Origin: a virus
Reading direction: 5' to 3' (one strand)
Virus record (IMG/VR): IMGVR_UViG_3300045988_158809
DNA: 64,000 bases
Shown: positions 181 to 38,388 of the stretch, piece by piece
Numbering within the stretch: position 1 is the first letter of the stretch
Layout: every line of letters begins with the position of its first letter
The notes under the pieces: generated by a model
The model's database searches: none
The model's input: the letters and a program-made list of their open reading frames with translations, nothing else
What the model was told of the DNA's origin: nothing
Program-made: the position numbers and the translations under genes

Positions 181-229
181 TTTGATGATATAAAACATAT
201 TTTTCCATATAAAATAATTGTGTTTTTAT

Positions 230-260
230 TTTGCAAAAACAAAATAAAACCTTATCTTTG
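230..260 (+). promoter_or_regulatory. Bacteroides-type promoter (-33 TTTG / -7 TAnnTTTG)
   Basis: TTTG at 230-233 and TAtcTTTG at 253-260 with a 19-nt spacer, upstream of the first small gene. Confidence 0.55.
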
Positions 261-295
261 TATCAGTGTTAAGGAACAAACATTATTTACTTTTT

Positions 296-331: not shown

Positions 332-619
332 ATGACTAAAAATCTCAACGTATGGTGTACATTATTTCATGAAAGTGAATGTAAAATTTACATACAAGAT
401 GAAGATGGTGAAACACTTTCTGAATATCTACATGTCCAAGGAAATCCAATTTCTGTAAAAGAAGTATATAAAAAAACAGGAGAGATAAAAGGTTCTTATA
501 AAGGGATCTGTGAATCTGTGAAAGAGATTAAAGAAAGAGAAAAAGAGTTTATGAAAAGAAATAAAGAGGATTTTGCGCGATATTACGGTAGAAGAGAAGC
601 GGATAAATACTTTAAATAA
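332..619 (+). CDS. hypothetical protein (95 aa)
   Basis: Taken from ORF 266..619. I prefer the ATG at 332 because the upstream part of the ORF is only the 28-nt repeat read through. Confidence 0.5.
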   Translation: MTKNLNVWCTLFHESECKIYIQDEDGETLSEYLHVQGNPISVKEVYKKTGEIKGSYKGICESVKEIKEREKEFMKRNKEDFARYYGRREADKYFK

Positions 620-633
620 AATATTCATTTATA

Positions 634-661
634 ACCGTGGTGGCAACACGTCAATTCAGCA
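634..661 (+). repeat. 28-nt leader element, copy 2
   Basis: Identical to 296-323. It ends exactly 8 nt before ATG 670. Confidence 0.9.
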
Positions 662-669
662 GACACATT

Positions 670-1179
670 ATGTTACTTTACGTCGAAAAAAAATCTTCAC
701 AGGAACAAATTTATCAGTTTGCAAAAGAAGTAGGTGCAAAATGGATTGTAGTCAATTCAGATCATTATAAGGGAAACAATAAAGGGTATTACCAGGATGT
801 AGAATCTTTCCGTAGTTCAACGGTATTCCACTGGAATTTAAAACCGGAAGATCGCGGTGCCATTTCTGTATATGTTACGGATATTGATATACCGGCTGCA
901 GTGTCTAAGAGGATAGAATTACAGCGGGAAATAGTCAGACTTGATTACGATTTTCAGTTATTTATGAAAAAGATTGAGACTGATTATCCTTTGCAGAAAA
1001 TAGATAAAAGATGGGGAGTAAATAACCCTAAAAGGCTGGAAATTGAGGAACTTAGAGATAAACGTAGAGAGGCGATAAAGAATGCTTGTGAAGAGCATGA
1101 CAAAAATGTAGCTCATATCAAGTCAGAAATGATTTCCACTAATTTCGTTTCTTCCACATTTATAGAATTATCCTTATAA
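670..1179 (+). CDS. hypothetical protein (169 aa)
   Basis: Taken from ORF 637..1179, with the ATG at 670 placed after the repeat. No domain recognised. Confidence 0.55.
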   Translation: MLLYVEKKSSQEQIYQFAKEVGAKWIVVNSDHYKGNNKGYYQDVESFRSSTVFHWNLKPEDRGAISVYVTDIDIPAAVSKRIELQREIVRLDYDFQLFMKKIETDYPLQKIDKRWGVNNPKRLEIEELRDKRREAIKNACEEHDKNVAHIKSEMISTNFVSSTFIELSL

Positions 1180-1190
1180 TTTTTTATAAG

Positions 1191-1221
1191 CCTATGTACT
1201 TTCAGAAAAATCACTGTTTTT
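1191..1221 (+). repeat. Boundary motif, site a (CCTATGt-N12-ATCACTG-TTTTT)
   Basis: CCTATG at 1191 and ATCACTG at 1210 (19-nt register), followed by a T-run. Confidence 0.8.
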
Positions 1222-1246
1222 ATTAAACTTCATAAAATCAATTATC

Positions 1247-1735
1247 ATGAAACGTATTGTAAACATATTAAATATTAATCAGGCTGTATGCCGTTCCAGA
1301 GAAGACAATACAATAGTATCTTCTCTGGAAGATGAAAAATTATCTATAGCATTTATCGAGTCTTATCTAAATGGTAATATATGGGGAGTGTATTATCAAG
1401 AAGATAACCTGGTATATGAAACAAAAGACGGTGATATTTATTTCATGTCAGAAGATTGTGTGAAACTATCAGACGACGAACAATTACTTTTTGATACCAG
1501 CGATTTCGGCTGGAAAGTAAATCCGCAAAACTGGGTGTATCTTATAGGTACTGATAGTGTTGAAAAATTGGATTTGGAAGAAAATTCGGCCGATTCTGAT
1601 AGCGATGTATGTTACTATCAGGGAGAGTCTGGAGCCATGGTGACTGAAAAAGATAGTGACGGGACTGAGAATCCACTAAAATCAGGATGGTATCCGTGCT
1701 CCAGTTACAATGAATATGTTGAATCTTATAATTAA
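1247..1735 (+). CDS. hypothetical acidic protein
   Basis: 162-aa ORF with a very acidic C-terminal half (DLEENSADSDSD...). No domain recognised. Confidence 0.55.
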   Translation: MKRIVNILNINQAVCRSREDNTIVSSLEDEKLSIAFIESYLNGNIWGVYYQEDNLVYETKDGDIYFMSEDCVKLSDDEQLLFDTSDFGWKVNPQNWVYLIGTDSVEKLDLEENSADSDSDVCYYQGESGAMVTEKDSDGTENPLKSGWYPCSSYNEYVESYN

Positions 1736-1744
1736 TTTGCTACA

Positions 1745-2182
1745 ATGAAAAAATTCAAAATATCACAAGACCAGATACATTATCAGGACGATAAAGTATT
1801 ATTATCATTTGCAGTTGACAAAGGTGTACCGGGATATAATTCGCGTGAAAACAAGTTTTCTGAGCCGTTTGTGGCCGATATAGATGGCCGCATGTATCTT
1901 ATACGGCCCGAAAATGTAACATCGTCCTCAGACGGTAAATTCTTCCTTATGGAAGCCGTAATGCCCGACCGCACCATGAACGACGCGGAAATCATTGGAT
2001 GGAAACTGAAATGCGCCCGCCAGGACGCCGGGATTACATGCGATGAACTGGCCGATCGTGCCGGCGTGCGGCGTAACACAGTTGAACTCATTGAAAAAGG
2101 TTGTTTCAACGCGAAAATCAATCTCATTTGCAGCCTGGCAGAAGCTATGGGAATGGAAGTAACACTCACCCCTATGGAGTGA
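1745..2182 (+). CDS. protein with a C-terminal XRE-type helix-turn-helix
   Basis: The C-terminus IIGWKLKCARQDAGITCDELADRAGVRRNTVELIEKGCFNAKINLICSLAEAMG fits the Cro/C1 HTH pattern. Confidence 0.65.
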   Translation: MKKFKISQDQIHYQDDKVLLSFAVDKGVPGYNSRENKFSEPFVADIDGRMYLIRPENVTSSSDGKFFLMEAVMPDRTMNDAEIIGWKLKCARQDAGITCDELADRAGVRRNTVELIEKGCFNAKINLICSLAEAMGMEVTLTPME

Positions 2183-2224
2183 CGGAAAAATCACTCTATG
2201 GCACCTCAGAAAAATCACTGTTTT
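2171..2224 (+). repeat. Boundary motif, site b (double unit)
   Basis: CCTATGG 2171 / ATCACT 2190, then CTATGG 2196 / ATCACTG 2214 and TTTT. The units overlap with a 24-nt period. Confidence 0.85.
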
Positions 2225-2506
2225 ATCGTCTAAATGTAAATAAACAAACGTAAGGCATACGGAAAAAACTGTATTAAATGGGTATTAAATATAAATTAAA
2301 AGCGCGACGGAGTACGCCGCGCTAGGATACTAAAAGTGTGAAGCAATTCACAAATGAAAACCTACTGATAGTAGATTTTCGTTTTAATCCACAAGGGAAA
2401 ATCCCTTGACGGCACAAAGATAGTATTTATCTTATATCCAAAAAATATTCATCATAATTTCTATACCTGTTTTATGAACTGAATTATTATTTTAAAAGAA
2501 AAATCA

Positions 2507-3172
2507 ATGAAAACACAAATAGAGAAACTTAGACAACTTTCAGATAAAAAGAAAGGTGTAGTAATGAATCAATATGTAGATGATTTATTACGCAATGGAA
2601 AAGCATATACTGTACGGAGCCGGTATAGTGGACGTTACTACCATAAAAAGAGTTATACTGAAGAACTGGATAAACTTCTTACAGAGCATGGCATAAGCCA
2701 TGAAATAGGAAACGACGCCCCTCGCGGTGGAATGAATGGTGAGTTTGTATCACTTAAAGGTACTGTGTTAAAGTATGTATTAGACCGCAAAAAGGAAAGA
2801 GAGGAATTCTGGAAAGCAGAACAAGATGGCAAGGATAAACAAAGGAAATTGGCTTATGAAAGATATAAACAGGAATGCGAAAAAACTTATAAGTTCTGCG
2901 TGGAGAATAATATAGAAATTGATTTTTCTTACTTTACTGAAAAAGATAATGAAAGGTTTTTCCATCTTGATTATGACGATATAAAGAAGGAAAAATTAGG
3001 ATATAAAATATCTATTCCTAAACGCTTTTACGGTATAGCATCGAGGTCTTCAGGTGTACATTCGAATGAAGGATTTCGTAGATACGTTAAAGAAAAACTG
3101 TTGTCTTCGGGTTTATCGCATGAAGGGTGCAAGATTACTAAAGTTTACGACTGTGGCGTTGGCGATGGTTAA
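2507..3172 (+). CDS. hypothetical protein (221 aa)
   Basis: ORF on the track. Lys/Glu-rich, no domain recognised. Confidence 0.55.
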   Translation: MKTQIEKLRQLSDKKKGVVMNQYVDDLLRNGKAYTVRSRYSGRYYHKKSYTEELDKLLTEHGISHEIGNDAPRGGMNGEFVSLKGTVLKYVLDRKKEREEFWKAEQDGKDKQRKLAYERYKQECEKTYKFCVENNIEIDFSYFTEKDNERFFHLDYDDIKKEKLGYKISIPKRFYGIASRSSGVHSNEGFRRYVKEKLLSSGLSHEGCKITKVYDCGVGDG

Positions 3173-3181
3173 TTTATACCA

Positions 3182-3211
3182 CCTATGGAGTTTCAGAAAT
3201 ATCACTGTTTT
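3182..3211 (+). repeat. Boundary motif, site c
   Basis: CCTATGG 3182-3188, ATCACTG 3201-3207, then TTTT. Confidence 0.85.
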
Positions 3212-3231
3212 GTTTTTTAATTATACTATTT

Positions 3232-3525
3232 ATGGACGAAAGATTTATAATTACACGATTTACTGACGATACAAACCGCTGGGCGTTGGAAGACACTGAG
3301 TTTGGAGTGTTGTATGAATATGTTGGCGCAGACCTTAACCCTGTAAATATCCTTACAGAAAAGAAAGGATTTTTCGACGGCAAGAAAGGACATCAGCGGA
3401 TGGTTAATTTAGGAGTGGACGCTATCCAGTTCATCATAAAGAATCATGAGAAGATTTTCAGACTGGCCGAAATAGAAGAAGATGATATTGATGAATATCC
3501 GCAAATGGCGACAGAACTGAACTGA
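3232..3525 (+). CDS. hypothetical protein (97 aa)
   Basis: ORF on the track, sitting between two boundary motifs. Confidence 0.5.
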   Translation: MDERFIITRFTDDTNRWALEDTEFGVLYEYVGADLNPVNILTEKKGFFDGKKGHQRMVNLGVDAIQFIIKNHEKIFRLAEIEEDDIDEYPQMATELN

Positions 3526-3565
3526 GTTATCCCGAATAAATCCGTTTCTCTTTATTATATTCAAC

Positions 3566-3597
3566 CCTATGGACCTATAAAAATATCACTGTTTTTT
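3566..3597 (+). repeat. Boundary motif, site d
   Basis: CCTATGG 3566-3572, ATCACTG 3585-3591, T6. The next ATG (3598) directly abuts the T-run. Confidence 0.85.
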
Positions 3598-4053
3598 ATG
3601 CAAGTATTCGTAACATCTACATCGTGTATCGAGACCGCCTCACAGCTCGACAAGAAAAGACTTAACAAACAGATTATAGAAGCCGGACAAATCCTTAAAG
3701 CCATAAGAGGGGAGGGGAAAGGCTGGCACCATCATCCTGCTACCCTGATGTATTCACACCACACGGCATGGCTGGAGCTTTACCGTCTTTGCCTGCAGGC
3801 CTACATGTCCGGCAACACTCAGGAGGCAGAAGCATACAGCCGACAGGCAGACGCGATACGTCCGCCCTTCCTGACAGACAGCCTTTGCGAGCAGCACAGA
3901 AAACGCCTGTTCACCAAAGCTCCGGAGCTATATCCTTTATTCCAGGCGTACGGCACGAGCCGCGAGAACTGGTATATTGTAGATGGCAGATTATTGAGAT
4001 ATATCGACGGCAAACTTATAAAGAAGCCTATGGAAAATGCCGGAAATCACTGA
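3598..4053 (+). CDS. conserved phage protein, possibly pyrimidine-dimer DNA glycosylase-like
   Basis: The N-terminus MQVFVTS..ASQLDKKRLNKQIIEAGQIL...GW.HHPA matches a pattern I recall from phage proteins annotated as Pyr_excise-like. The functional call is tentative. Confidence 0.4.
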   Translation: MQVFVTSTSCIETASQLDKKRLNKQIIEAGQILKAIRGEGKGWHHHPATLMYSHHTAWLELYRLCLQAYMSGNTQEAEAYSRQADAIRPPFLTDSLCEQHRKRLFTKAPELYPLFQAYGTSRENWYIVDGRLLRYIDGKLIKKPMENAGNH

Positions 4054-4060
4054 TTTTTTT
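4027..4060 (+). repeat. Boundary motif, site e
   Basis: CCTATGG 4027-4033 and ATCACTG 4046-4052 (which contains the stop TGA 4051-4053), then T7. Confidence 0.85.
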
Positions 4061-4138
4061 ATTTATAATCGTGTCGGCAAAAAAAGATTGTAGTGAATAC
4101 TGATTATAATAGAAGTAACAATTAAAAATGTAGATATT

Positions 4139-4915
4139 ATGGGAAAATACGATTTCGATGATTCAATATATGACTATGAAGAAGAATTGTTTTATAACAT
4201 TCGTTACTCAGACGATGTGACATTGATAGAAAATGTATCACATCTGCGTCATCACATAAACTGTCATGGCTTTAGTGAAAAATTATATGAGTATCTGAAT
4301 ATGGATTACGAACAAATCTGTCAAGTGGTGGAATGCGCCAAAGGATCTATTTCTGTGGCAAGTCTGAGAAAAGATTTTAATGGCGTTATGGCTCCATTGA
4401 TTGAGGAAAAACAGCGTAAAGAGGAAGCAATGGCAAAGAATGAAAAACTCATTGCCTGCCTGAAGGACAAAAGAAAAACTATGTGTGGAATAGGGACAAG
4501 AAAGCTGAAACTGTTCCTTAACAAACTGATAAAGCAAGGTGACACAACAGCAGCTTTATATAGGACAGTACTGGAAGCAGAAGACTTTAATATTAAAGCA
4601 AAAGATACCCGTCTTGATTACAAGGAAAAAGTTTACGAAAAAAAGCATGAAGAAATACACAAACTGATAGAATTATGCCGTGAATATGGAGTCACGTTCG
4701 GGAAACAGTTGTCCGATGTCAGAGATACACGATATGTGGTTTATTTTGAACTGCCAAATATGGAACAAATCAGTTTTCATACGGATTTGATTGATGCCGG
4801 TAAGATACCCGACTATACGAAGGAGTGGGACGGCAAGCGATGTTCCACCCTCGGAAAGATTGAGAATGCCATTAATTTCAGATACAGAGATAGGATTGAA
4901 GAAGTCTATAAATAA
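4139..4915 (+). CDS. hypothetical protein (258 aa)
   Basis: ORF on the track. A C-terminal block ISFHTDLIDAGKIPDYTKEWDG looks conserved, but I cannot name the family. Confidence 0.6.
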   Translation: MGKYDFDDSIYDYEEELFYNIRYSDDVTLIENVSHLRHHINCHGFSEKLYEYLNMDYEQICQVVECAKGSISVASLRKDFNGVMAPLIEEKQRKEEAMAKNEKLIACLKDKRKTMCGIGTRKLKLFLNKLIKQGDTTAALYRTVLEAEDFNIKAKDTRLDYKEKVYEKKHEEIHKLIELCREYGVTFGKQLSDVRDTRYVVYFELPNMEQISFHTDLIDAGKIPDYTKEWDGKRCSTLGKIENAINFRYRDRIEEVYK

Positions 4916-4998
4916 ATCTGAACCTATATTTATCAGGAATTATAATAATTGTTTCAATCTTATTGAGAAAACGATTAATGCACAGGCTTACAGAGTAG

Positions 4999-5033
4999 CC
5001 TATGGAACTTGACATAAATCACTGATTTTTTTT
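4999..5033 (+). repeat. Boundary motif, site f
   Basis: CCTATGG 4999-5005, ATCACTG 5018-5024, then T8. Confidence 0.85.
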
Positions 5034-5046
5034 AAATATTGGAATT

Positions 5047-5997
5047 ATGGAAGAATTAGACAGACAGATAATTGAAATGTACCGTGCAGGCATAAAGGTG
5101 TCCGAAATTTGTCGTACATTGGGCACACACACCCAGAAAGTATATAAGGTGCTCCGAGAAAACAATATCTCGAAGAACGGACGCCGACTGACTCCGGAAG
5201 TTATTCAGGAAATTGCAGAAAAGCTTCGTCAGGATGTGCCATCTACAAAGCTGGCCGAACAGTACGGATGCTCCGTCTGGACCATACACAAGATTATGCG
5301 CGAAAACAACATACCTATGCAGGTGGGCCGTCCGTGGCATCGCCGCAAAGACAAGCAGGCAGCATCCGCGCCATCTGCTCCCATCCCTGAGTCCTTACAA
5401 GCTCCCGAAATGCCTGATTCGCTTCGCGCACTGGTCATGGCACCTGAAAACCGTACGTACTTTGCCTGTTTCCACAAAAACAAAAAAGAAGTGTCTTCTG
5501 CAGCCGAAGCGGTAGCCTTTCTGTATTCCGTCATGTCACGCCGTTTCACGCTGTCGTCCGACGACGTGACTCGCATAGAGCAGACATTTGCCCAGCTACA
5601 GGCATTCGACAAACCGCGCCAGACGCTTGTATGCCCGCTCAGCATAAATGAAAATCTCCGTTTTAAGATTATGCTGGCACCGGAAGTGAACGCGCAGTAC
5701 AGCGCATTCCAGAAGGGACGCGACGAGAGTGTGGTGAGATTGAAAAAGACAGACTGGCGGGCTTTTAATCCGGGCATGTACGGCATCTGTATTCCGGTAG
5801 GCGTGTATTCTGAGAATGGCGATGCGGTGAAGTATTACGACTTTAAGGGAGCGGTTCAGGCCGAATGCAAGGAGCAGGCATACGATCGTGCGCTGGATAA
5901 GTTGAAGGCAGAAACCGGTGAAGATCGTTTCAACAGCCTGAAAGTTCCTGGCAAGTACAGCGACAAGGTAAAATTCACTTTCAAGCCTATGGACTGA
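5047..5997 (+). CDS. protein with two N-terminal HTH motifs
   Basis: Two resolvase/sigma-r4-like HTH repeats: GIKVSEICRTLGTHTQKVYKVLRENNI and STKLAEQYGCSVWTIHKIMRENNI. GC content is visibly higher than in neighbouring genes. Confidence 0.6.
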   Translation: MEELDRQIIEMYRAGIKVSEICRTLGTHTQKVYKVLRENNISKNGRRLTPEVIQEIAEKLRQDVPSTKLAEQYGCSVWTIHKIMRENNIPMQVGRPWHRRKDKQAASAPSAPIPESLQAPEMPDSLRALVMAPENRTYFACFHKNKKEVSSAAEAVAFLYSVMSRRFTLSSDDVTRIEQTFAQLQAFDKPRQTLVCPLSINENLRFKIMLAPEVNAQYSAFQKGRDESVVRLKKTDWRAFNPGMYGICIPVGVYSENGDAVKYYDFKGAVQAECKEQAYDRALDKLKAETGEDRFNSLKVPGKYSDKVKFTFKPMD

Positions 5998-6043
5998 CAA
6001 AAATATCACCCTATGGAGTTTTTGAGAAATCACTGATTTTTTT
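5986..6043 (+). repeat. Boundary motif, site g (double unit)
   Basis: CCTATGG 5986 / ATCACC 6005, then CCTATGG 6010 / ATCACTG 6029 and T7. Confidence 0.85.
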
Positions 6044-6063
6044 GAAACATTCATTCCATTAAA

Positions 6064-6711
6064 ATGAAAAAGAACAGATTGTTTGAAGAGCGTAAAAGAA
6101 AAGTGTCCGCAAAAGCCAAAGAATTGGTCGATTCAGCTTTTAAACGAATTGATGAAGAGCATGAACTTTTAAAGGACAAAAATCTGCCTAAAGAGGATTT
6201 ATTTCAATCAATATCTAAAACAACAAACATGAAAAAAGAATTCACATTAGAACAACTCGTAACGATACGCGACGTGTTTGCCGACATGTGCGACAAGCAG
6301 ATTGAACGCGGAAAAAGAGATTTGGCAGAAGAATATCTGGACATTGTGAATGTAGTTCAAGCCAAAACAGGATGCGACGAATACGAAAGTCTGGAAGATT
6401 TTCAACTTGACGAGAGTGGAACTTACGGCTATGCGGAAAAGAGAGAGCTGGACGACCTGGAAGAAGTGGCAGTGGACGAAATGATAGCTTTCGCAAAGTC
6501 TTCTGACGAGCAGCCATGGGAAATACTGAAAGCGAGAGTAAACAATTATCTGGAGGATGTTTCGGCAAACACAGGCATGACCCGTAAGGACACAATAGAC
6601 CGTAGAACCATTTGCATAAACAGGCTAATTATTCATTGTATCCATGCCTGCACCAGCGAAGAATTGAAGCGTCTGGACGGGATAGTAAAAGAACTTGCAG
6701 AGAATTTTTAG
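6064..6711 (+). CDS. hypothetical acidic protein (215 aa)
   Basis: ORF on the track. No domain recognised. Confidence 0.55.
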   Translation: MKKNRLFEERKRKVSAKAKELVDSAFKRIDEEHELLKDKNLPKEDLFQSISKTTNMKKEFTLEQLVTIRDVFADMCDKQIERGKRDLAEEYLDIVNVVQAKTGCDEYESLEDFQLDESGTYGYAEKRELDDLEEVAVDEMIAFAKSSDEQPWEILKARVNNYLEDVSANTGMTRKDTIDRRTICINRLIIHCIHACTSEELKRLDGIVKELAENF

Positions 6712-6766
6712 CCTATGGGCTCGGAGAAATATCACTCTATGGCATTTGCCAGAAATCACTGATTTT
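6712..6766 (+). repeat. Boundary motif, site h (double unit)
   Basis: CCTATGG 6712 / ATCACT 6731, then CTATGG 6737 / ATCACTG 6755 and TTTT. An extra CCTATG lies at 6771-6776. Confidence 0.85.
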
Positions 6767-6881
6767 CCCACCTATGATTACGGTAAAAATATTTTACACT
6801 AAAATCACGCAAAAAAGTCGCTACGAAAACAAAAAATTTCTACCGCGGTAGCAAAAAAACGCCTTCGTAGTCACATAAAAA

Positions 6882-6920
6882 ATAAGCATACAGTCCGGTA
6901 GTTCTGTATGCTTATTTTTT
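6882..6920. terminator. Bidirectional intrinsic terminator between convergent units
   Basis: Stem ATAAGCATACAG / CTGTATGCTTAT, flanked by A-rich sequence on the left and a T-run on the right. Confidence 0.75.
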
Positions 6921-6934
6921 ATTCAGATGTCGGT

Positions 6935-7551: not shown

Positions 7552-9096
7552 TTATTTTTGAACTATCTCATACTTAATCTTCGCCTTCTCGCCAAATGCA
7601 GCTTCCGAAGCCTGTTCCAGCAGGGGCTTGAAGTTTTCCTGAATATATGTGTAGAAGAATGCGGTAGGCACTTTAATCGTGACTGTACCGCAGCCCGTTC
7701 CGCCGTAATCGAGAAAGCGTAGCCAGGTGTTATATTCCGTCACGGTGCAGTTGTTCTGAATCACGTCCATGAAGATTTGCCATGCCTGGAGTTCCTTTTC
7801 CGTAGGCTGCGGGGTGGGGGATGCTTCCTTCTCCTCCTGCTGCCCTTTCTGTTCCGGTGGTTCCGGGTGAGCTTCTGGCGTGCGGCTGGTGATGAAGTTC
7901 TTCAGCGAGGTGATGACGTATGCCTTTACTGAGCGCGGCTTGTATCGCTTCACCATATCGCCCAGTTCGAGCACATATTTGCGGAAGTCGTTCACCAGCT
8001 CGTCGGGAAGCATATCCGACAGGCCTTTCACGTCGGTATCGGTCAGCTTGTATTCGGTGCGAAGGAGCGTCCATGCGTCGGCAGGCTGGTTGATGCGCTT
8101 GCGCTGCTGACGGAGTTCTTCGCCCAGTCCTGAAAGCTTTATCTGGAACTGCAGGTTTTCGGGGTTTCCCCGCTTTGCGCCATTCTTGTATAGCGGCTTG
8201 TAATCAAAAGTAAAGTCCACGAGGTTGTATTCAGAAAGTTCGTCCAGATCTTCCTTTATCGGGTCGAGCACAGTGGAACAGAAACGTGAAAATTTGGGGT
8301 AAATGTCCTTATCCACCTTCACCTTGTTTCCGTTCTTGTCAGTTTCGGTCACTTCCTCTATCAGTCCGAGGTACTTTTTAAGCTCTACAAGGTTGACTGA
8401 TTTACTGCCTATATCCTTCCATCGGGTGAGGTAGATGTAGATGGAAGGGGTGCGCTTGCGCCGGCATATACGGGTGATGTGGCGAAGATGGTTCATGTAT
8501 CCCAGTCCGTTTCCGAGGTCGCAAAGGTATCTCAGGGTATTAAGCGACATCTGGACTTCCACATAGTTTTCGCGCCGTGTGGTGCTTTTCTTGTATTTGT
8601 ATGTGCCTCCGATTTTCTCTTTTTCGGGAATACTGATTTCGGTGAACACATTTGCGAACACGCGCCTTAGCTGACCTGTTTCGGCATCCCGGCGTATGTA
8701 AGTGACGGACATGTTTTTCAGATTCCCGCACGTTTCCTGAAGGATATGATACGCGTCCGGCTTTACACCTATCGATGCGGTATCTACGCGCAGAGTGACT
8801 ATCTTGTTTTCGGTCTGTTTATTGTCTTTCGACTTATCCAGGCACTCCGCAAGGTCGTTTTCTTCTGGCATTCCGAGTTCAGGGAAAAGTACGAGCTGAC
8901 GCCCGGCATTTCCTTTTTTCAGGTATTGGTTGAACTGGTCCTGCAGGGAGTTCATGAGTTCTATCATGATGCTTCGCTCCGTGAGGGTGAAGTCGCCTCC
9001 TATCGTGGCGTAAAGATACGGCTGCTTGATAAATTCACAGTCTTTCAGCTCGCTTACAAGCTGGCTTTTCGGCAGAATATCTTTCTGTTTTTTCAT
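7552..9096 (-). CDS. Replication initiator (Rep_3-like N-terminus) with a DnaA-domain-I-like C-terminus
   Basis: The N-terminus FIKQPYLYATIGGDFTLTERSIMIELMNSLQ is plasmid-Rep-like. The C-terminus WQIFMDVIQ...YNTWLRFLDYGG..VTIKVPTAFFYTYIQENFKPLLEQA follows the DnaA N-terminal domain pattern. The gene sits next to the 22-bp iterons. Confidence 0.7.
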   Translation of the reverse strand: MKKQKDILPKSQLVSELKDCEFIKQPYLYATIGGDFTLTERSIMIELMNSLQDQFNQYLKKGNAGRQLVLFPELGMPEENDLAECLDKSKDNKQTENKIVTLRVDTASIGVKPDAYHILQETCGNLKNMSVTYIRRDAETGQLRRVFANVFTEISIPEKEKIGGTYKYKKSTTRRENYVEVQMSLNTLRYLCDLGNGLGYMNHLRHITRICRRKRTPSIYIYLTRWKDIGSKSVNLVELKKYLGLIEEVTETDKNGNKVKVDKDIYPKFSRFCSTVLDPIKEDLDELSEYNLVDFTFDYKPLYKNGAKRGNPENLQFQIKLSGLGEELRQQRKRINQPADAWTLLRTEYKLTDTDVKGLSDMLPDELVNDFRKYVLELGDMVKRYKPRSVKAYVITSLKNFITSRTPEAHPEPPEQKGQQEEKEASPTPQPTEKELQAWQIFMDVIQNNCTVTEYNTWLRFLDYGGTGCGTVTIKVPTAFFYTYIQENFKPLLEQASEAAFGEKAKIKYEIVQK

Positions 9097-9151
9097 GGGA
9101 AAAAGTTTTATATTCGATTCGACACTTTATCTGACCTAAGTATTACTGAGG

Positions 9152-9409
9152 TCAGCTTTTCACTTCGCGTATTTCGAAGTGTCTCTCTCCGCTGGTGAAG
9201 GTGGATACCACGCGCGAGGTATCGTCTTCTATCAGACTGATGAATGACACGCCGAGCACCTGGGCCACTTTCTCCATAAACTCGGTGGTGCAGCTCAGGT
9301 GTCCGTTCATGCGCTGTGAGAGCGCCACCGGAGTCATTCCGAGTTCCTGGGCAAGTTCTATCTGCGACATGCCTTTTTCTTTCAGAATTTCCTTTATTCT
9401 TAATTTCAT
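9152..9409 (-). CDS. XRE-family HTH transcriptional regulator
   Basis: MKLRIKEILKEKGMSQIELAQELGMTPVALSQRMNG... It is the first gene of the Rep operon and faces the iterons. Confidence 0.8.
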   Translation of the reverse strand: MKLRIKEILKEKGMSQIELAQELGMTPVALSQRMNGHLSCTTEFMEKVAQVLGVSFISLIEDDTSRVVSTFTSGERHFEIREVKS

Positions 9410-9510
9410 GATGAATGTGTTTTGTTTCCGGCAAAGGTAGAAATAATTTCTAAATAATGAAATATTATTCTGGCATATTTCTATAAATCGAAATTATAAG
9501 AAAATATATA

Positions 9511-9647
9511 GTTGTAGTAATTTGTACCTTCAGGCTGAAAAGTTGTAGTAAATTGTACTAAATGTTGGGGTAATTTGTACAATAAGTTGTAGTAATTTGT
9601 ACCAAATGTTGTAGTAAATTGTCCCTATAGTTGTAGTAATTTGTACC
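9511..9647 (+). repeat. Iteron array A: six direct copies of GTTGTAGTAATTTGTACC
   Basis: Copies start at 9511, 9542, 9564, 9586, 9608 and 9630. The last five are spaced exactly 22 bp apart. Confidence 0.9.
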
Positions 9648-9840
9648 GAAGCGTTTTTAATTTGCTGATTTTCAATTATTATTGCATCGTTATATATCTA
9701 TATCTTATCATTTCATATTTAAGCAGAACGAAAGGTATTTATTCTATAAATAATAATCTTTCCTCTTTTCCATATACTATGATGGATATATGATATAGAG
9801 AGTTTGTGACGGTTGAATTTCAGAAGGTTACAAATGCGTT
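9648..9840. other. AT-rich spacer between the iteron arrays (candidate DNA-unwinding element)
   Basis: Visibly AT-rich stretch between two oppositely oriented iteron arrays. Confidence 0.5.
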
Positions 9841-9969
9841 TGTACAAATTACTACAACATTTGGTACAAAACGCTCAAACATTAGGGGCAAAACGGTGCA
9901 ACATTACGGCCAAAATGATACAGCATTAGGGACAAAAAGTTCCAACTATACGGTCACAAAAATAGCAGC
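9841..9969 (-). repeat. Iteron array B: six inverted, progressively degenerate copies at a 22-bp period
   Basis: GTACAAATTACTACAAC (9842-9858) is the exact reverse complement of the array A core. Further copies start at 9863, 9885, 9907, 9929 and 9951. Confidence 0.8.
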
Positions 9970-12662: not shown

Positions 12663-13518
12663 ATGAATTTGACAGAGAAAATAGAGTATTCAATTAATCT
12701 ATTGAAAAAGAGTGAGAAAATGGCTCTTAAAATAGACCCTGAAAACGGCTTTTATTTGGCGTTTTCGGGTGGGAAAGACTCACAGGTATTATACCATTTA
12801 GCCGTAATGGGGGGGGGTGAAATTTAAAGCCCACATGAACCTTACAAGCGTAGATCCACCGGAGGTTATCAGGTTCGTAAAACAGCATTATCCTGATGTG
12901 GAACTGATAAAGCCGAAAATGAGTATCTATGATATGGCGAAGAAGAAAGGCTGTCTTCCTACTCAGAAAGTCAGATGGTGCTGTGAGGAATTTAAGGAAA
13001 TGTCTGGGGCCGGCAAGGTTACGTTAATCGGAATAAGACGAGAGGAAAGTGCAAGAAGATCGAAGCGTAATGAGGTAGAAATGAATAATTATAAATTCAG
13101 CGGAAGCTTCGGTCAGTGGAGCGAACATCGCGAGAATATGGTGACTTGCGTGGGAGGAAAAGATAAGATAATTGTCAGTCCGATACTCTACTGGACGAGC
13201 CGCGACGTTTGGGAGTTTCTTAATTCAAACTACATACCTCATTGCAGTCTTTACGATAAAGGGTATAAAAGAATAGGTTGCATACTCTGTCCAATGTCAA
13301 ATTATAAACAAAAGATTAGAGAGATAAGAGATTATCCGCATGTTAAAAGAAATTGGATAAAAGCTATAGAGTGGATGATGGAAAATAAATGGACTGAAAA
13401 ACGTTTAACGGAAGATGCGGAAATGGCTTTCAACTGGTGGATAAGCGGGAAATCTTTCAAACAGTTTTATGCGGATGAATATCTGCAACAGAAGATAGAT
13501 TTTGAGAACGTAAAATGA
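12663..13518 (+). pseudogene. PAPS-reductase-family PP-loop ATPase, interrupted by a frameshift in a G9 tract
   Basis: ATG 12663 gives ...FYLAFSGGKDSQVLYHLAVMGGGEI*. A run of 9 G lies at 12809-12817. Downstream frame 12817..13518 continues with KFKAHMNLTSVDPPEV...RWCCEEFK...GCILCP. Removing one G fuses the two frames. Confidence 0.75.
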
Positions 13519-24924: not shown

Positions 24925-25422
24925 ATGAATTTAACCAGACCTTACAAGACCTGCCGCGTATGCGGATGCACCAAGCCGAAAGAGGATTTCGTGGAAGGAA
25001 GGAAAGTATGTCTCTCTTGCTTCTCCGAATACAATAAGCAGCTCTACAGAAAAAGACATGCAGACCGTTCGGATGGAGTAAGATACAGCAAGGAATCCCG
25101 ACAGATAGTGGAATACCGTAACGGGCTACAGCGGAAATACTGGAATCCGCAGATGATAGCCGATTTCAGGAAATTGTTTCCCGTCACTACGAATGAAGAG
25201 CTTGCTTCTTTGTTCTGTGTGTCGAAAAGAACAATCAACCGTAAGGCTACGGAACTGGGGTTGAGAAAAGATGCGGAGTGGATGCGGAAGATGAGTCGTC
25301 ACAACCTGTTTTTCGCATCGGTGAAGAATCGCTTAAACGGTTATTCACAACTGGTAAAGGCCCGTAAGGCACTGGAAATAAAGTATAACAATCCGAATTT
25401 TACAAGAATAGACAGAGTATGA
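24925..25422 (+). CDS. zinc-ribbon plus HTH protein (tandem paralog 2)
   Basis: CRVCGC..CLSCFSEY, then FPVTTNEELASLFCVSKRTINRKATELGLRKD. Confidence 0.55.
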   Translation: MNLTRPYKTCRVCGCTKPKEDFVEGRKVCLSCFSEYNKQLYRKRHADRSDGVRYSKESRQIVEYRNGLQRKYWNPQMIADFRKLFPVTTNEELASLFCVSKRTINRKATELGLRKDAEWMRKMSRHNLFFASVKNRLNGYSQLVKARKALEIKYNNPNFTRIDRV

Positions 25423-26201
25423 ATATAGAACTGAATACAATATATAACGAGGACTGTATGGAAGGTATGAAGCGTATTCCTGACGGATCGGTGGATTGCA
25501 TTATTTGTGATTTGCCGTATGGAGTATTGAATAGAGGAAATGAACATGCGCAGTGGGACTGTCCTTTACCTATGGATCAACTTTGGGCTGAATATAAAAG
25601 AGTAACAAAGGACAATGCAGCTATAATTCTTTTTGCTCAAGGAATGTTTACTGCAGATTTAATGGTTAGCAACAGGAACATGTGGAGATATAATCTGATA
25701 TGGGATAAAATGGGTAAAACGGGATTTTTGAACGCCAACAGAATGCCTCTCCGACAGCATGAAGATATATGTGTATTCTATAATTCTTTGCCGGTGTATA
25801 ATCCACAAATGGAGAAATGTGAATTGCATAAAAGAAATCATGGACGTGGAAATCTTAAATCGCCTGTAACAAATAGTTGTTATGGTAAACATATAGAAGT
25901 AAAAACTATCGAAAGTGATGAAAAATTCCCTACTTCTATTATAAGTATATCAAAGGAACATAAAATAGGGCATTTTTTTCACCCCACCCAGAAACCCGTT
26001 TCCCTCCTGAAATACCTCGTCCTCACCTACTCTAACAAAGGCGACACAATTCTTGACAACTGTATTGGAAGTGGCACAACAGCCTTAGCTTGCATAGATA
26101 CTGGGCGCAACTTCATCGGATTCGAGAAAGAAAAGAAATATTTCGACATAGCCATGAAGCGTATCGCTCAAATGAGACAACAACCAAAACTTGATTTTTA
26201 A
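25419..26201 (+). CDS. DNA methyltransferase (N6A/N4C, beta class)
   Basis: DLPY motif (CIICDLPYGV) precedes FHPTQKPVSLLKYLVLTYSNKGDTILDNCIGSGTTALAC, which is the motif IV-before-motif I order of the ParB-less N6_N4 MTase family. Confidence 0.85.
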   Translation: MNIELNTIYNEDCMEGMKRIPDGSVDCIICDLPYGVLNRGNEHAQWDCPLPMDQLWAEYKRVTKDNAAIILFAQGMFTADLMVSNRNMWRYNLIWDKMGKTGFLNANRMPLRQHEDICVFYNSLPVYNPQMEKCELHKRNHGRGNLKSPVTNSCYGKHIEVKTIESDEKFPTSIISISKEHKIGHFFHPTQKPVSLLKYLVLTYSNKGDTILDNCIGSGTTALACIDTGRNFIGFEKEKKYFDIAMKRIAQMRQQPKLDF

Positions 26202-28559: not shown

Positions 28560-28876
28560 TGAAAAAGACGAAAGTATATATCAGTCTGCCTATCTCAGGG
28601 CACGACATCGAGCAGGTGAAGAAACGCGCGGAGGAAGTGAAGCTGCGAATAGAGAACGACAGAGTGGAAGCCATTACCCCCTTCGACGTGTGCGACGAGA
28701 AAGACCGTCCATACTCCTACTACATGGGGCGCGACATCGAAGCCCTGATAGAGTGCGACGGCATCTATGTGTGCAACGGTTGGCACTCGTCGAAAGGCTG
28801 TCAGGCGGAAGTCCATGTAGCTGTGGTGTACGACAAGAAAATGGTGTTTGAGAGTAAAAGTAAGGTGTTTGTATGA
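28559..28876 (+). CDS. DUF4406-like protein (nucleoside 2-deoxyribosyltransferase-like fold)
   Basis: KVYISLPISGH...YYMGRDIEALIECDGIYVCNGWHSSKGCQAEVHVA matches the DUF4406 pattern as I remember it. Confidence 0.65.
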   Translation: MKKTKVYISLPISGHDIEQVKKRAEEVKLRIENDRVEAITPFDVCDEKDRPYSYYMGRDIEALIECDGIYVCNGWHSSKGCQAEVHVAVVYDKKMVFESKSKVFV

Positions 28877-29796
28877 AAATAGGTTTGCTTTCGGTTGACA
28901 GCAGTTATCCCAACCTCGCGCTTATGAAGATTTCCGCATATCATAAACAACGCGGCGATGAAGTGGAATGGTACTCTCCTTTCGAGCATTACGATAAGGT
29001 TTATGCAGCAAAGGTATTCAGTTTCACTCCCGATTACGGATATTACATCAATGCTGACGAGGTGGAGCGTGGCGGAACAGGCTACGACATACAGAAATGT
29101 CTGCCAAAGGAAATTGAAACCGTGCAGCCGGACTACAGCATATGTGGCTCGATAGAAAAGAATGTGGCATACGGATTTCTCACCCGCGGCTGTCCGAACC
29201 GCTGTAAATGGTGCGTCGTTCCTAAGAAAGAAGGTAAGATAGCTCCTTATATGGACGTGGAAGAAATAGCTATTGACGGCCGGAACAATCTTATTCTCAT
29301 GGATAACAACGTGCTGGCAAGCGATTACGGTATCAGTCAGATAGAAAAGATAGTGAAGCTGAAATATCGGGTAGATTTCAATCAGGGACTTGATGCCCGT
29401 CTGGTCACTCCCGAAATAGCCAAACTCCTTTCAAAGGTGAAATGGATAAAGCGAATCCGTTTCGGTTGCGACACTCTCGGACAGATAGACGATTGTGAAA
29501 AAGCCATATCACTCCTGGAGAGAAACGGTTACAAAGGTGAATACTTTTTCTACTGCATTCTTCTGGACGATTTCGACGAAGCTTTCCGGCGCGTAAACCA
29601 CTGGAAGCAGAGAGGCGGACGGTTCTATCCGCATTGCCAGCCATACCGCGACGTGAACAATCCTCACCAGATGATACCGCAATGGCAAAAGGATATGGCA
29701 AGCTGGGCAGACAAGAAGTGGATATTCAAGTCGTGCGAGTTTAAGGACTATGAGCCACGAAAAGGATTTAAGTGTAGTGCGTATTTTGAAAAGTAA
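28873..29796 (+). CDS. radical SAM enzyme with a B12-binding-like N-terminal domain
   Basis: CPNRCKWC (CxxxCxxC) preceded by GFLTRG. The N-terminus MKIGLLSVDSSYPNLALMKISAYHKQRGDEV resembles the class B radical SAM fold. Confidence 0.8.
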   Translation: MKIGLLSVDSSYPNLALMKISAYHKQRGDEVEWYSPFEHYDKVYAAKVFSFTPDYGYYINADEVERGGTGYDIQKCLPKEIETVQPDYSICGSIEKNVAYGFLTRGCPNRCKWCVVPKKEGKIAPYMDVEEIAIDGRNNLILMDNNVLASDYGISQIEKIVKLKYRVDFNQGLDARLVTPEIAKLLSKVKWIKRIRFGCDTLGQIDDCEKAISLLERNGYKGEYFFYCILLDDFDEAFRRVNHWKQRGGRFYPHCQPYRDVNNPHQMIPQWQKDMASWADKKWIFKSCEFKDYEPRKGFKCSAYFEK

Positions 29797-34373: not shown

Positions 34374-34859
34374 ATGAACACGACATTTGAAAAGTCAGCA
34401 AACAGTACCGACGAATGGTACACCCCGAAAGAAATACTCGATGAGCTGGGCCCTTTCGACCTCGACCCATGTGCGCCGGTAGTTCCACTGTGGCCAACGG
34501 CTGCCACCATGTATAATAAGAACGACGACGGACTTTCTAAGCCGTGGTTTGGCCGTGTATGGCTCAACCCTCCCTACTCCCGTCCGCTCATCGAGCAGTT
34601 TATCAACCGCATGGCGGAACACGGAAACGGCATCGCGCTTCTATTCAACCGGTGCGACAGCAAGATGTTTCAGGATGTGATTTTCAAGAAAGCATCCGCC
34701 ATGAAGTTTTTGCGCCACAGAATAAAGTTCTACAGGTCAGATGGTTGTAGGGGGGGGTCGCCCGGATGTGGCAGTATTTTGATAGCTTTTGGCGATGAGA
34801 ATGCAAATGTCATTCGTGATTGTAAGATAGAAGGTAAATTTGTATCACTTAAAGATTAA
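34374..34859 (+). CDS. phage-type DNA N6-adenine methyltransferase (Dam family)
   Basis: DEWYTPKEILDELGPFDLDPCA plus VWLNPPYS. Contains an in-frame G8 tract at about 34751-34758. Confidence 0.8.
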   Translation: MNTTFEKSANSTDEWYTPKEILDELGPFDLDPCAPVVPLWPTAATMYNKNDDGLSKPWFGRVWLNPPYSRPLIEQFINRMAEHGNGIALLFNRCDSKMFQDVIFKKASAMKFLRHRIKFYRSDGCRGGSPGCGSILIAFGDENANVIRDCKIEGKFVSLKD

Positions 34860-37533: not shown

Positions 37534-38388
37534 ATGGCAAAAATTATTTCAGTGGTCAACTTCAAAGGGGGAGTGGCCAAATCAACCACAGCTTTTAATC
37601 TTGCGGCTGCACTTTGGATGTGCGGCAAACGTGTTTTGATAGTAGATGCAGATCCGCAGTATGAACTTACTACCCGTATCGGGTTTAATGAGCGCGATGC
37701 GGAGACTATGTATGAATGGATGCTGTCGGAGGGTACGAAGAATGAACTTCCGGCTCCTATATATAACAGGTATGCCGGAAACGATGATTTCTGTTTTATC
37801 CCATCAAGTTCAAAGGTCTCAAACATCGAGCAGGCTCTTGTCACTCAGCCCAACCGCTTCAAGTCTCCGTATATGATATTGAGAAATCTGCTGCATAAGT
37901 ATTGCGAAGATTTCGATTATATCTTCCTGGACTGTCCACCGTCGCCGGGATTTATGAATAATCTGGCTCTTATCGCGAGTGATGAAATTATCGTGCCTGT
38001 GGAATGTGCCGGTGAGTCAATCGACGGACTTATCAAACTTGATATGACTATTCAGGACGTGAAGGAACAGGTGAATCCTGATTTGACGATAAAAGGCTAC
38101 CTGCTTACCAAGTACGACGACCGTACAAAAATCACACGAAAAATCAGAGAGGAAATTTCGGAGGAGGGGTTACTCCTGAATACGAAAATCCGCTCGTCTA
38201 TCAAGTTTAAGGAGGCGGGTATGTTCTATAAGAACATCTTTGAGTATGATCCGAACGGAAACGGCGCCGAGGATTATATGTCGCTGGCAGAGGAACTGTT
38301 TGATGTGAAAAGGCCGGACAACTGGAAGACTGTTTCGGCTGAGTGTTGGGAAAAGACTATTGGTTCGCAAACCGAGGACGAAGAATAA
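37534..38388 (+). CDS. parA: ParA/Soj-family partition ATPase
   Basis: MAKIISVVNFKGGVAKSTTAFNLAAAL...RVLIVDADPQ shows the deviant Walker A motif, with no N-terminal HTH extension. Confidence 0.9.
   Translation: MAKIISVVNFKGGVAKSTTAFNLAAALWMCGKRVLIVDADPQYELTTRIGFNERDAETMYEWMLSEGTKNELPAPIYNRYAGNDDFCFIPSSSKVSNIEQALVTQPNRFKSPYMILRNLLHKYCEDFDYIFLDCPPSPGFMNNLALIASDEIIVPVECAGESIDGLIKLDMTIQDVKEQVNPDLTIKGYLLTKYDDRTKITRKIREEISEEGLLLNTKIRSSIKFKEAGMFYKNIFEYDPNGNGAEDYMSLAEELFDVKRPDNWKTVSAECWEKTIGSQTEDEE

Follow-up and report, generated by a model that had tools for sequence, protein, structure and literature searches.

A one-way bipartite repeat lies at points of gene exchange in a Bacteroides phage-plasmid and may double as a gene-start signal

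The DNA analysed here, a window of 64,000 nt (IMG/VR virus record IMGVR_UViG_3300045988_158809), comes from an uncultured Bacteroides phage-plasmid lineage, with a source genome of ~98 kb. The element encodes a plasmid replicon and ParA, and therefore a carrier state exists. On the left of the window lies a plus-strand array of accessory genes of the anti-defence and early type. A canonical Bacteroides-type promoter (TTTG-N19-TATCTTTG) is located at 230..260 on the plus strand, and a perfect 19-bp inverted repeat between A- and T-runs (6875..6922, both strands) forms a bidirectional intrinsic terminator that closes the block. The whole window has 41 TAnnTTTG boxes, yet the plus strand has none between 253 and 7084. 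Judged from its sequence, the 230..260 promoter can drive the entire plus-strand block up to this terminator.

Searching the window for CCTATGG-N12-ATCACTG with up to two mismatches yielded 11 matches, all on the plus strand, starting at 1191, 2171, 2195, 3182, 3566, 4027, 4999, 5986, 6010, 6712 and 6736. Shuffled windows gave 0.22 matches on average, and 11 were reached in none of 100 shuffles. The 19-nt register between the two blocks that an earlier note had described is exact in 11/11 copies. A weight matrix derived from 48 copies detected no match on either strand in the remaining 57 kb, matching the note, which had seen none outside 1.1-6.8 kb, and no complement of the motif anywhere in the window.

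All copies are plus-strand. The first (1191..1221; matrix score 41.2) is a single unit, CCTATGT-N12-ATCACTG followed by TTTTT, between genes 637..1179 and 1247..1735. A double follows, whose unit 1 (2171..2196) lacks a T-run and holds the last codons and stop (..PME*) of an XRE-type HTH gene (1745..2182), while unit 2 (2195..2224) ends in TTTT and is separated by a 287-nt gap from gene 2507..3172. The next single unit, with TTTTGTTTTTT, lies at 3182..3218, 24 nt ahead of the ATG at 3232. The unit at 3566..3597 touches ATG 3598 of a pyrimidine-dimer glycosylase gene; its core stops 6 nt short of the start codon and TTTTTT fills the gap, as had been claimed. At 4027..4060 (with ATTTTTTT), the motif is read in frame 1 of this gene (3598..4053; ..KKPMENAGNH*) and does contain the stop codon reported for it, TGA 4051-4053, at motif positions 25-27. 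Another single unit, with ATTTTTTTT, occupies 4999..5033, 22 nt before ATG 5047. The second double comprises unit 1 (5986..6011), holding the end (..KPMD*) of gene 5047..5997, and unit 2 (6010..6043) with ATTTTTTT, 28 nt from ATG 6064. In the terminal double, unit 1 (6712..6737) sits directly behind the stop TAG 6709-6711, and the last unit (6736..6766) has a weak T-run (ATTTT) and no ORF behind it; the sequence downstream is not conserved in relatives. The three overlapping doubles with a 24-nt period (2171/2195, 5986/6010, 6712/6736) were thus recovered, and a T-run stands behind every single or last unit, with only four T after 6736.

Two statements of the earlier note needed adjustment. 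The motif does not mark every gene boundary; it is found at 8 of the 11 plus-strand boundaries and is missing at 180/332, 619/637 and 1735/1745. CCTATGG-N12-ATCACTG is real, but the conserved element extends further on both sides: an A/T-rich patch (ATATA) at -8..-4, CCTATGG(A), N7-8, RAAAW-ATCAC-TG and WTTTTT. Together these form a composite signal of ~40 bp, in which two invariant blocks surround a free spacer, with the A/T-rich patch and the T-run. The site shows no dyad symmetry and has no Rfam match. We found no consistent stem-loop (folding z-scores -2.2 to +1.1, pairing only in doubles), which supports the view that the motif is not a classical intrinsic terminator. Two further candidates were rejected, namely a Rep iteron and a Bacteroides TTTG/TAnnTTTG promoter, whose consensus the sequence does not match.

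The conservation acts on nucleotides rather than on protein, as suggested before, since some copies lie in non-coding DNA and others are read in either of two frames. Would-be third codon positions (T5, A20, A23) are invariant, and the second-position sites 19 and 25 vary. Many copies begin 0-12 nt behind a stop codon. The upstream gene stops in phase with the motif AUG in 36/73 cases, above chance, and A at position 27 (129/206 copies) closes a 7-codon frame from the AUG in CCUAUGG. In polyvalent proteins, in-frame copies lie at domain junctions, in one reading frame every time, and one J-domain/LPD29 protein has a domain module between two such copies that another lacks. Copies with an intact T-run (5-8 T) also occur within long ORFs, at L317 7559, L057 3367 and L066 1024.

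The series runs on upstream beyond the start of the window, where six further copies (L317 7229-8783) bring the total to 17 within 9.2 kb of the source genome. No copies were present in those of its late and replication regions that were examined. In 43 related loci we counted 226 matches, none on the opposite strand, comprising 154 distinct 26-mers with near-invariant blocks. Conservation at gene boundaries of related genomes, which the earlier note had named as its own test, is thus observed, and the site is nearly invariant among phages with 25-50% protein identity. Tandem arrays occur with periods of 24, 39, 45, 51 and 57 nt. L066 has lost the terminal copy, and in L319 the T-run of this copy has decayed.

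Homology break points between related loci fall inside the motif in 42% of cases versus 7% for random positions, and within 10 nt of it in 58% versus 9%, an enrichment partly due to gene ends as such, with alignments also continuing across the motif that both sequences share. Of the 117 gene families in the arrays, 64 are singletons. L319 lacks the segment 2195..3566, with the deletion junction inside ATCAC, and the segment 4027..4999, with the junction within a motif copy; the gene behind copy 1191 is deleted as well, one deletion end adjoining the motif. In L074, an unrelated gene lies between copies 3566 and 4027 with flanks that are 95% identical: the 95%-identity block begins exactly at the 3182 copy, homology stops within the 3566 unit at 3578, and it resumes at 4025. 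Copy 4999 is absent from the equivalent L074 junction, where two genes are 32 nt apart. In L052, homology breaks at 6051. As far as sequence comparison can tell, the motif is thereby shown to be a crossover point for the insertion, deletion and replacement of whole genes and in-frame domains between related phages. Any gene flanked by two copies thus acts as a cassette that can be exchanged.

The T-run is linked to the downstream gene. Its length is 5.6 if an ORF starts within 120 nt, compared with 3.6 in intragenic copies (p=5e-8) and 4.6 in copies without an ORF (p=4e-5). Motif-to-ATG distances cluster at 15-31 nt, with extremes of 6 and >280 nt, and each intergenic gap >40 nt contains a canonical promoter or a motif. 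Canonical promoters are also located at L317 4974, 9166 and 9899, and these could transcribe everything without the motif. The geometry suits a promoter, but the half-sites CCTATGG and ATCACTG, proposed earlier as -35 and -10 elements, are separated by only 12 nt; pairing CCTATGG as the -35-like with the T-run as the -10-like element would give a layout that could work.

We tentatively favour the reading that the motif is a protein-recognised, promoter-like gene-start element doubling as a recombination linker. The pair of invariant blocks flanking a free spacer suggests contact by a sequence-specific protein. The ATG spacing, the link between T-run and ORF, the content of the gaps, the stretch free of TAnnTTTG and the decay of the terminal copy lead us to infer a 5′ signal for the downstream gene. 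Most likely this would be a phage-specific promoter, used by the host RNA polymerase together with an activator or sigma-like factor that the phage supplies, with CCTATGG as the -35-like element, TG-W-TTTTT as an extended -10-like element and a start ~5-7 nt past the T-run. Such a promoter would supplement the read-through that the few canonical promoters of host type provide. First units of doubles, terminal copies and in-frame copies may be footprints of past cassette fusions, which would lose the T-run and decay slowly. The blocks differ from the Bacteroides sigma-A consensus, and the most conserved one, ATCAC, would lie in the spacer if the layout were of the sigma-70 type, both of which speak against a promoter. 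A gene-start role is further at odds with the mere 6 nt between copy 3566 and its ATG, with the sufficiency of canonical promoters and with the lack of a recognised reader behind the near-invariance. The ~83 kb of genome examined yielded no recognisable sigma factor, RNA polymerase or activator. The candidate readers are the plus-strand product of 5047..5997, with two tandem, paired-domain-like N-terminal HTH domains and a C-terminal domain of unknown type, and the XRE-family HTH protein of 1745..2182 (plus strand), whose gene stops within the first motif unit of a double. The former has only 15 homologs, limited to close relatives and absent from distant motif-bearing contigs; the latter occurs in 9 of the related loci.

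Two other readings also give the motif a role in expression. A stoperator-like function, rather unlikely in our view but still a serious competitor, would have a phage repressor monomer on each asymmetric site block elongating host RNA polymerase in one orientation, keeping the accessory genes silent while the phage is a plasmid-prophage, with recombination at the sites as a by-product. The strict co-orientation of asymmetric sites with transcription, their position mostly in short intergenic spaces, with some over stop codons or within ORFs, the HTH genes in the array, the tandem HTH domains of the 5047..5997 product and the carrier state all fit this, and copies within ORFs or at the block end need no extra explanation. 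It does not explain the T-run link, however, nor the restriction to ~9 kb of a 98-kb genome; immunity specificities usually diverge, unlike this site, the two-HTH candidate is lacking from distant contigs, and blocks 18-19 bp apart centre to centre are far for one small two-domain monomer. A signal in the polycistronic mRNA is less probable still. Ribosomes might land or re-initiate at it in a host without Shine-Dalgarno pairing, using the U-run and a mini-ORF from AUG(4-6) to UGA(25-27), or it could be the site of a sequence-specific RNA-binding protein or nuclease defining monocistronic units. The motif is on the sense strand throughout, the U-run precedes most start codons by 10-25 nt and follows the downstream ORF, the mini-ORF and its phase point the same way, and canonical promoters are enough for transcription. 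Yet neither RNA structure nor covariation was seen, a third of the copies do not keep the mini-ORF, which in copy 3566 ends after 3 codons, the ATG lies at highly variable distances, no complement was found in the window, and the upstream A/T-rich patch with a free 8-nt spacer looks more like a DNA-protein contact.

Dedicated recombination sites, at which a phage enzyme cuts and joins so that gene and domain cassettes are captured, excised and shuffled in an integron-like manner among anti-defence genes, would account for cassette gain, loss and replacement, for copies without obvious expression use that flank the last cassette or sit at domain junctions, for doubles that look as if two cassette ends had been placed side by side, ATCAC(Y)|(Y)CTATGG, and for the tandem arrays. 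We consider this improbable: the surroundings of the arrays showed no recognisable integrase, invertase, transposase or HUH enzyme, the site lacks dyad symmetry, and terminal and intragenic copies decay. Crossovers also vary in position, lying once in ATCAC and another time in CCTATGG, so short-homology recombination fits better than a fixed cleavage point. We disfavour most strongly, as very improbable, a hairpin-less, factor-dependent terminator or attenuator at every gene's 3′ end. The T-run behind a conserved block, the closeness to upstream stops and the copy behind the last gene would suit it, but a stem-loop is lacking, T-rich copies inside long ORFs would abolish their C-terminal domains, it is precisely where no gene comes next that the T-run is weaker, 15-31 nt to the next ATG is too short for a new promoter, and a strong classical terminator already closes the block.

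The closest known systems are the PeSLs of T4-type phages, mobile regulatory cassettes composed of a host sigma-70 consensus promoter and a G+C stem-loop terminator, both experimentally tested (Arbiol et al. 2010, PMC2839356; Comeau et al. 2014, PMC4122927). By analogy, the motif appears to resemble PeSLs without their promoter consensus and stem-loop. Both are short, conserved and repeated one-way before small accessory genes in a plastic genome region, and recombination between copies accounts for insertions, deletions and replacements among close relatives; PeSL-like sequences between halves of a split gene parallel the in-frame copies. Unlike PeSLs, the motif has neither the host TTTG/TAnnTTTG consensus nor a stem-loop, is bipartite with a free spacer, and is also translated, in one frame throughout, inside polyvalent proteins. 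T4 MotA-dependent middle promoters and the SPO1 gp28 promoters (AGGAGA-N17-TTTNTTT) are phage-specific promoter sets served by phage sigma factors or activators. They likewise combine a non-host upstream block with a T-rich -10-like block and are repeated before many early or middle genes alongside host-type promoters, but the motif has an additional invariant ATCAC block just 5′ of the T-run, and its factor is putative. Integron attC sites, which are imperfectly palindromic and fold in single-stranded form, depend on an attI site and a neighbouring integrase. One site per cassette, uniform orientation, highly variable content and promoter-less cassettes read from an upstream promoter are shared features; no such palindrome, adjacent integrase or attI was seen at the arrays. 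Stoperators of cluster A mycobacteriophages (L5, Bxb1, TipsytheTRex) are 13 bp long, genome-wide and identical to the early-promoter operator; they are asymmetric, oriented with transcription and mostly in short intergenic spaces, some over stop codons or in ORFs (PMC9283540). The motif shares their asymmetry, multiplicity, orientation and placement, and a reader with two DNA-binding domains is plausible in both, but it spans 26-40 bp with a free spacer, is restricted to one accessory region and has a T-run tied to the downstream gene and only a putative repressor.

Beyond the earlier account, the analysis adds that the motif delimits the cassettes and domains of a mosaic, that copies lie in frame in polyvalent proteins and that the series continues upstream of the window. 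For this phage-plasmid lineage, the motif marks where anti-defence-type genes are swapped, and it is probably also a phage-specific gene-start signal.

The motif CCTATGG-N12-ATCACTG with its T-run forms a genuine series in the window. Allowing two mismatches at most, we found 11 copies between 1191 and 6761, all on the plus strand as the earlier note had claimed, versus a mean of 0.22 and a maximum of one match in dinucleotide-preserving shuffles. On the plus strand of the 64 kb window, eight of the ten CCTATGG and all eight ATCACTG occurrences lie within motif sites. The three overlapping doubles with a 24-nt period (2171/2195, 5986/6010 and 6712/6736) are present as described; the stop codon TGA at 4051-4053 does lie inside a copy, and another copy ends 6 nt 5′ of the ATG at 3598. 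Two further statements of that note needed narrowing. The motif was said to mark every gene boundary; it is found at eight of the 11 plus-strand boundaries and lacking at the other three. It was also said not to have been found outside 1.1-6.8 kb, which holds within the window, where a weight matrix built from 48 copies returned nothing beyond the 11 copies on either strand, but not upstream of it. The window belongs to a contig of ~98 kb that is also present in public assemblies, and its start cuts the series: six further copies follow immediately upstream, yielding 17 in 9.2 kb. No copy was found in the other ~74 kb examined, with ~83 kb of the ~98 kb genome covered. The full unit extends beyond the one given in that note and consists of an A/T-rich patch at -8 to -4, the two blocks with RAAAW 5′ and TG 3′ of ATCAC, and a terminal WTTTTT.

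We collected 43 related loci by searching viral and metagenome collections for the pattern and then applying the weight matrix. They contain 226 motif hits in 206 distinct contexts (154 distinct 26-mers), none on the opposite strand of its own locus. CCTATGG and ATCAC are practically invariant across these loci, while the eight bases separating the blocks are free. Distant relatives, whose proteins are 22-50% identical, keep both blocks and differ at position 25 (ATCAC-A/G/T-G). Across the lineage, the motif is a strand-specific element at the junctions of an accessory-gene array. A scan of bacterial genomes gave at least 120 matching stretches; among the matches listed, the extended motif occurred only in a phage contig binned with a Bacteroides MAG. 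Tandem arrangements are not restricted to the 24-nt period. In locus L066 (IMGVR_UViG_3300029111_000017, 2560-2830), six head-to-tail units with a 45-bp period are directly followed by a 410-aa ORF resembling TnpB of the IS605 family, and other related loci have doubles at 39, 51 and 57 nt. All 49 spacings of neighbouring tandem units (24, 39, 45, 51 or 57 nt) are multiples of three, which may be the imprint of an origin in, or passage through, coding sequence; within ORFs, only pairs at 39 nt were seen.

The element that carries the array is a tailed phage, uncultured and associated with Bacteroides, that also has plasmid features. Among its genes are those for the tape measure, an endolysin, an HU-like protein and ParA (37534..38388). 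Its Rep initiator (7552..9096, minus strand) combines DnaA_N and Rep3 domains and adjoins classical 22-bp iterons, which lie just upstream of it and of a small HTH gene: six direct repeats at 9507-9647 (TATAGTTGTAGTAATTTGTACC) and, at 9833-9964, five to six repeats in an inverted set. Repeats, Rep and the small HTH gene constitute a classical iteron origin, and with ParA this makes the element look like a phage-plasmid. Neither a relative of the element nor the motif was found among GenBank phages and PLSDB plasmids; one homologue of an array gene is labelled "uncultured Bacteroides sp.", and the promoters of the element are of the Bacteroides TTTG/TAnnTTTG type. Elsewhere in the window lie DNA-modification-type genes (12817-13518, 25419-26201, 28873-29796 and 34374-34859: PAPS-reductase-like, N6/N4 methyltransferase, radical SAM and Dam) and a gene for a HIRAN-domain protein (55257-56066).

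The array genes are small and highly variable. Their products include ArdA, an LPD5/LPD1/MutS_I polyvalent protein (metalloprotease/MutS_I), J-domain/LPD29 proteins, DUF6908, a BRCT protein, a pyrimidine-dimer glycosylase (DNA glycosylase), a methyltransferase-like protein and HTH proteins. Over the arrays of the 43 loci, 279 ORFs fall into 117 families, including 64 singletons. Such a gene content is that of an anti-defence or early accessory region.

Constraint on the motif acts at the level of DNA or RNA and not of protein, in line with the earlier proposal. The majority of copies are non-coding, and those that are translated occupy two reading frames: frame 3 inside long ORFs, and frame 1 where some genes end (..PME*, ..PMENAGNH*). 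In frame 3, the invariant positions include the third codon positions T5, A20 and A23, while the variable positions 19 and 25 are second codon positions. A protein-coding repeat or a linker carrying a protease site was considered as the primary cause and rejected, since most copies are untranslated or in another frame and the invariance ignores codon positions. The 12 copies that are clearly intragenic all use frame 3, in which they encode xYG-xx-E(K/I)S(L/Q), and are located between domains of polyvalent proteins. For a translated motif this is probably the sole tolerated frame, because frame 1 meets TGA and frame 2 yields a hydrophobic peptide. In the J-domain/LPD29 family a copy occupies the identical junction in proteins just 27-57% identical, and two members of 586 and 478 aa differ by a whole domain between two in-frame copies. 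Placed at domain junctions, the intragenic copies indicate that one element borders genes and domains alike. We also noted that the ATG within CCTATGG opens a 7-codon frame (motif positions 4-27; for example window 4030-4053 and 6013-6038), closed by TGA at positions 25-27 when position 27 is A, as in 129 of 206 copies; at 36 of 73 junctions the upstream gene stops in phase with this ATG.

Comparison with close relatives located mosaic break points at the same element. In genome L319, whose flanks are 95-98% identical to the window, the two-gene segment from unit 2195 to unit 3566 is absent, with the junction inside ATCAC, and the cassette between units 4027 and 4999 is missing as well. In genome L074, blocks matching 3182-3578 and 4025-4916 are 95% identical, and an unrelated gene takes the place of the one that the window has between units 3566 and 4027. 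Over all arrays, 42% of high-identity alignment ends lie inside a motif, versus 7% of random positions, and 58% versus 9% lie within 10 nt of one, an enrichment that in both measures is partly expected because motifs sit at gene ends. The motif thus coincides with mosaic break points, at gene as well as domain borders. One further mosaic was seen in gene 6064..6711, whose first 50 codons (window 6052-6214) are unique to the source genome; relatives have at this place a gene of 171 aa, a copy of the motif and the 5′ part of a gene of 160 aa. The left break point of this segment is at the motif, the right one within the gene.

Crossovers occur in the one conserved block in some cases and in the other in others, and the spacer goes with the upstream gene in some cases and with the downstream gene in others, which fits short-homology exchange better than one fixed cut point. 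We also considered that the motif could be the recombination site of a dedicated, unrecognised cassette-exchange system for anti-defence genes in Bacteroides phage-plasmids, integron-like and also assembling or disassembling polyvalent proteins in frame, and regard this as improbable. An identity with integron attC sites was rejected, the motif having no dyad symmetry and the genes around the arrays no integrase domain. Within the ~83 kb examined, no domain of a recombinase, sigma factor or RNA polymerase was recognised.

One function considered for the motif at intergenic sites is that of a terminator. The earlier note had seen no stem-loop and excluded a classical intrinsic terminator, and both points stood up. 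Single units fold no better than shuffles (z +0.6 to +1.1); only doubles pair, weakly, via CUAUGG/CUAUGG with G-U pairs. There is no G+C-rich hairpin before the U-run, copies with 5-8 T occur inside long ORFs, and the 15-31 nt to the ATG are too short for another promoter, so that a terminator function is unlikely. Instead, the T-run goes with a following gene. The longest run averages 5.6 where an ORF starts within 120 nt, compared with 3.6 for copies within genes (p = 5e-8) and 4.6 for copies without a following ORF (p = 4e-5). The first unit of doubles has none, and at the terminal copy (6736 in the window) the run is lost in L319 and the whole copy is missing in L066. The T-run keeps a constant distance from the core but not from the ATG, and so is part of the motif.

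A host promoter does not account for it either. A Bacteroides sigma-ABfr promoter would have TTTG at -33 and TAnnTTTG at -7, 19-21 nt apart; neither TTTG-N19-21-TAnnTTTG nor a TAnnTTTG box is present in any of the 11 window copies, and the nearest reading, TATG-N18-TGWTTTTT, misses the A and the final G of the -7 box. A sigma-70 scan of the motif gave background level only. The plus strand between 253 and 7084 is devoid of TAnnTTTG boxes, versus 41 in the whole window, and each intergenic gap of the block longer than 40 nt has either a canonical host-type promoter or the motif. The layout, with an A/T-rich patch, CCTATGG(A), ~18 nt, TG-W-TTTTT and an A-rich stretch ~5-7 nt further on, has the geometry of a bacterial promoter whose recognition blocks are foreign. 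A palindromic operator, AAAATCA-C-TGATTTT, was rejected: position 25 varies, unlike its mirror position 23, and no covariation links positions 19 and 29. Rfam gave no match to an RNA family or ribozyme. Given that a terminator is unlikely, that the T-run is tied to the downstream gene, and given the position relative to host promoters and the promoter-like geometry, we favour a putative phage-specific, protein-recognised, promoter-like signal for the start of the downstream gene. It would be read with a phage-supplied factor and would add to transcription reading through from canonical promoters, at 230-260 and further upstream.

An attractive candidate for such a reader is the product of 5047..5997. 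The model (pLDDT 79.5, confident) has two tandem HTH domains resembling the CRISPR-repeat-binding protein Cbp1 and Pax paired domains; its C-terminal domain gave no match. As universal reader this protein was rejected: it has only 15 close homologues, is carried among IMG/VR contigs only by the two closest, and is absent from distant motif-bearing contigs.

Among known systems, the T4-type PeSLs are the closest analogue. These regulatory cassettes recur in plastic regions, where recombination among them shuffles accessory genes; they are also seen between the halves of a split gene (PMC2839356). Likewise, the motif lies 5′ of accessory genes in a plastic region, and recombination between copies explains the indels and replacements. 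Unlike PeSLs, it has neither a consensus promoter for the host primary sigma factor nor a stable stem-loop terminator or attenuator; by analogy it would work like a PeSL without being one. We regard it as a variant of the mobile regulatory cassette with an unusual twist, the same DNA element also being found, translated, between protein domains. Stoperators of cluster A mycobacteriophages are asymmetric, oriented and intergenic (PMC9283540), and the motif resembles them in its asymmetry, its intergenic position and its orientation along transcription (226/226 hits on the array coding strand). However, it is bipartite and 26 nt long, versus 13 nt, and all 17 copies in the ~83 kb examined lie within 9.2 kb instead of being spread over the genome including an early lytic promoter; as counterpart of the stoperator repressor, the two-HTH protein is a candidate only, and it is absent from distant motif-bearing contigs. 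Iterons of the Rep3/DnaA_N type were rejected, as the genome's own 22-bp iterons lie elsewhere (9507-9964) and are unrelated in sequence. Part of the motif, WATCAC-N4-TTT, may resemble the IHF consensus, WATCAR-N4-TTR; the WATCACW heptads of the pSM19035 omega repressor and the T7 class II termination signal, ATCTGTT plus T-run, are further possible resemblances.

Several other elements were observed in and around the arrays. In the 287-nt gap after unit 2195 (window 2291-2455), the minus strand has a -7 box, TATCTTTG (reverse complement of 2418-2425), with TTTG 16 nt upstream. The ~115 nt that follow are rich in hairpins and end with a strong terminator (2323-2301 plus T-run). They are a candidate small RNA antiparallel to the operon, with no match in Rfam. 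The motif-free stretch has a second repeat system (window 211-281, 284-323 and 622-661; 9147-9217 in the source genome, L317): a canonical promoter segment of 71 nt is duplicated with 85% identity 5′ of the BRCT gene and of gene 332..619, and a 27-nt leader, CCGTGGTGGCAACACGTCAATTCAGCA, occurs in exact repeat 5′ of gene 332..619 and of gene 637/670..1179. Between the motif and the start codon, the large genes (polyvalent, J-domain/LPD29) share another conserved leader that includes a small G+C hairpin, AAGACCCCGCGCGGCCGGTTGCCGCACAAGTGTATG (L320 2193-2256, L057(rc) 2275-2340, L002(rc) 5700-5765), and a variant of it lies 5′ of ArdA. The hairpin GGCGGtttttatCCGCC precedes some motif copies.

Gut Bacteroides phages are mostly uncultured, and to our knowledge next to nothing is known about their transcription signals or about how they exchange genes. 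The accessory-gene pool whose borders the motif marks is highly diverse, with 117 families in 43 loci, methyltransferases among them. Since it is short, invariant and easily mutated, the ideas put forward here are directly testable. A gene-start signal, if true, would suggest that the Bacteroides RNA polymerase is acted on by an unknown transcription factor or a sigma-like protein, and the motif could be used as an orthogonal expression part. Exchange at the motif, if true, would provide a simple sequence tag to find such genes in metagenomes and would explain the modular assembly of anti-defence arsenals and polyvalent proteins.
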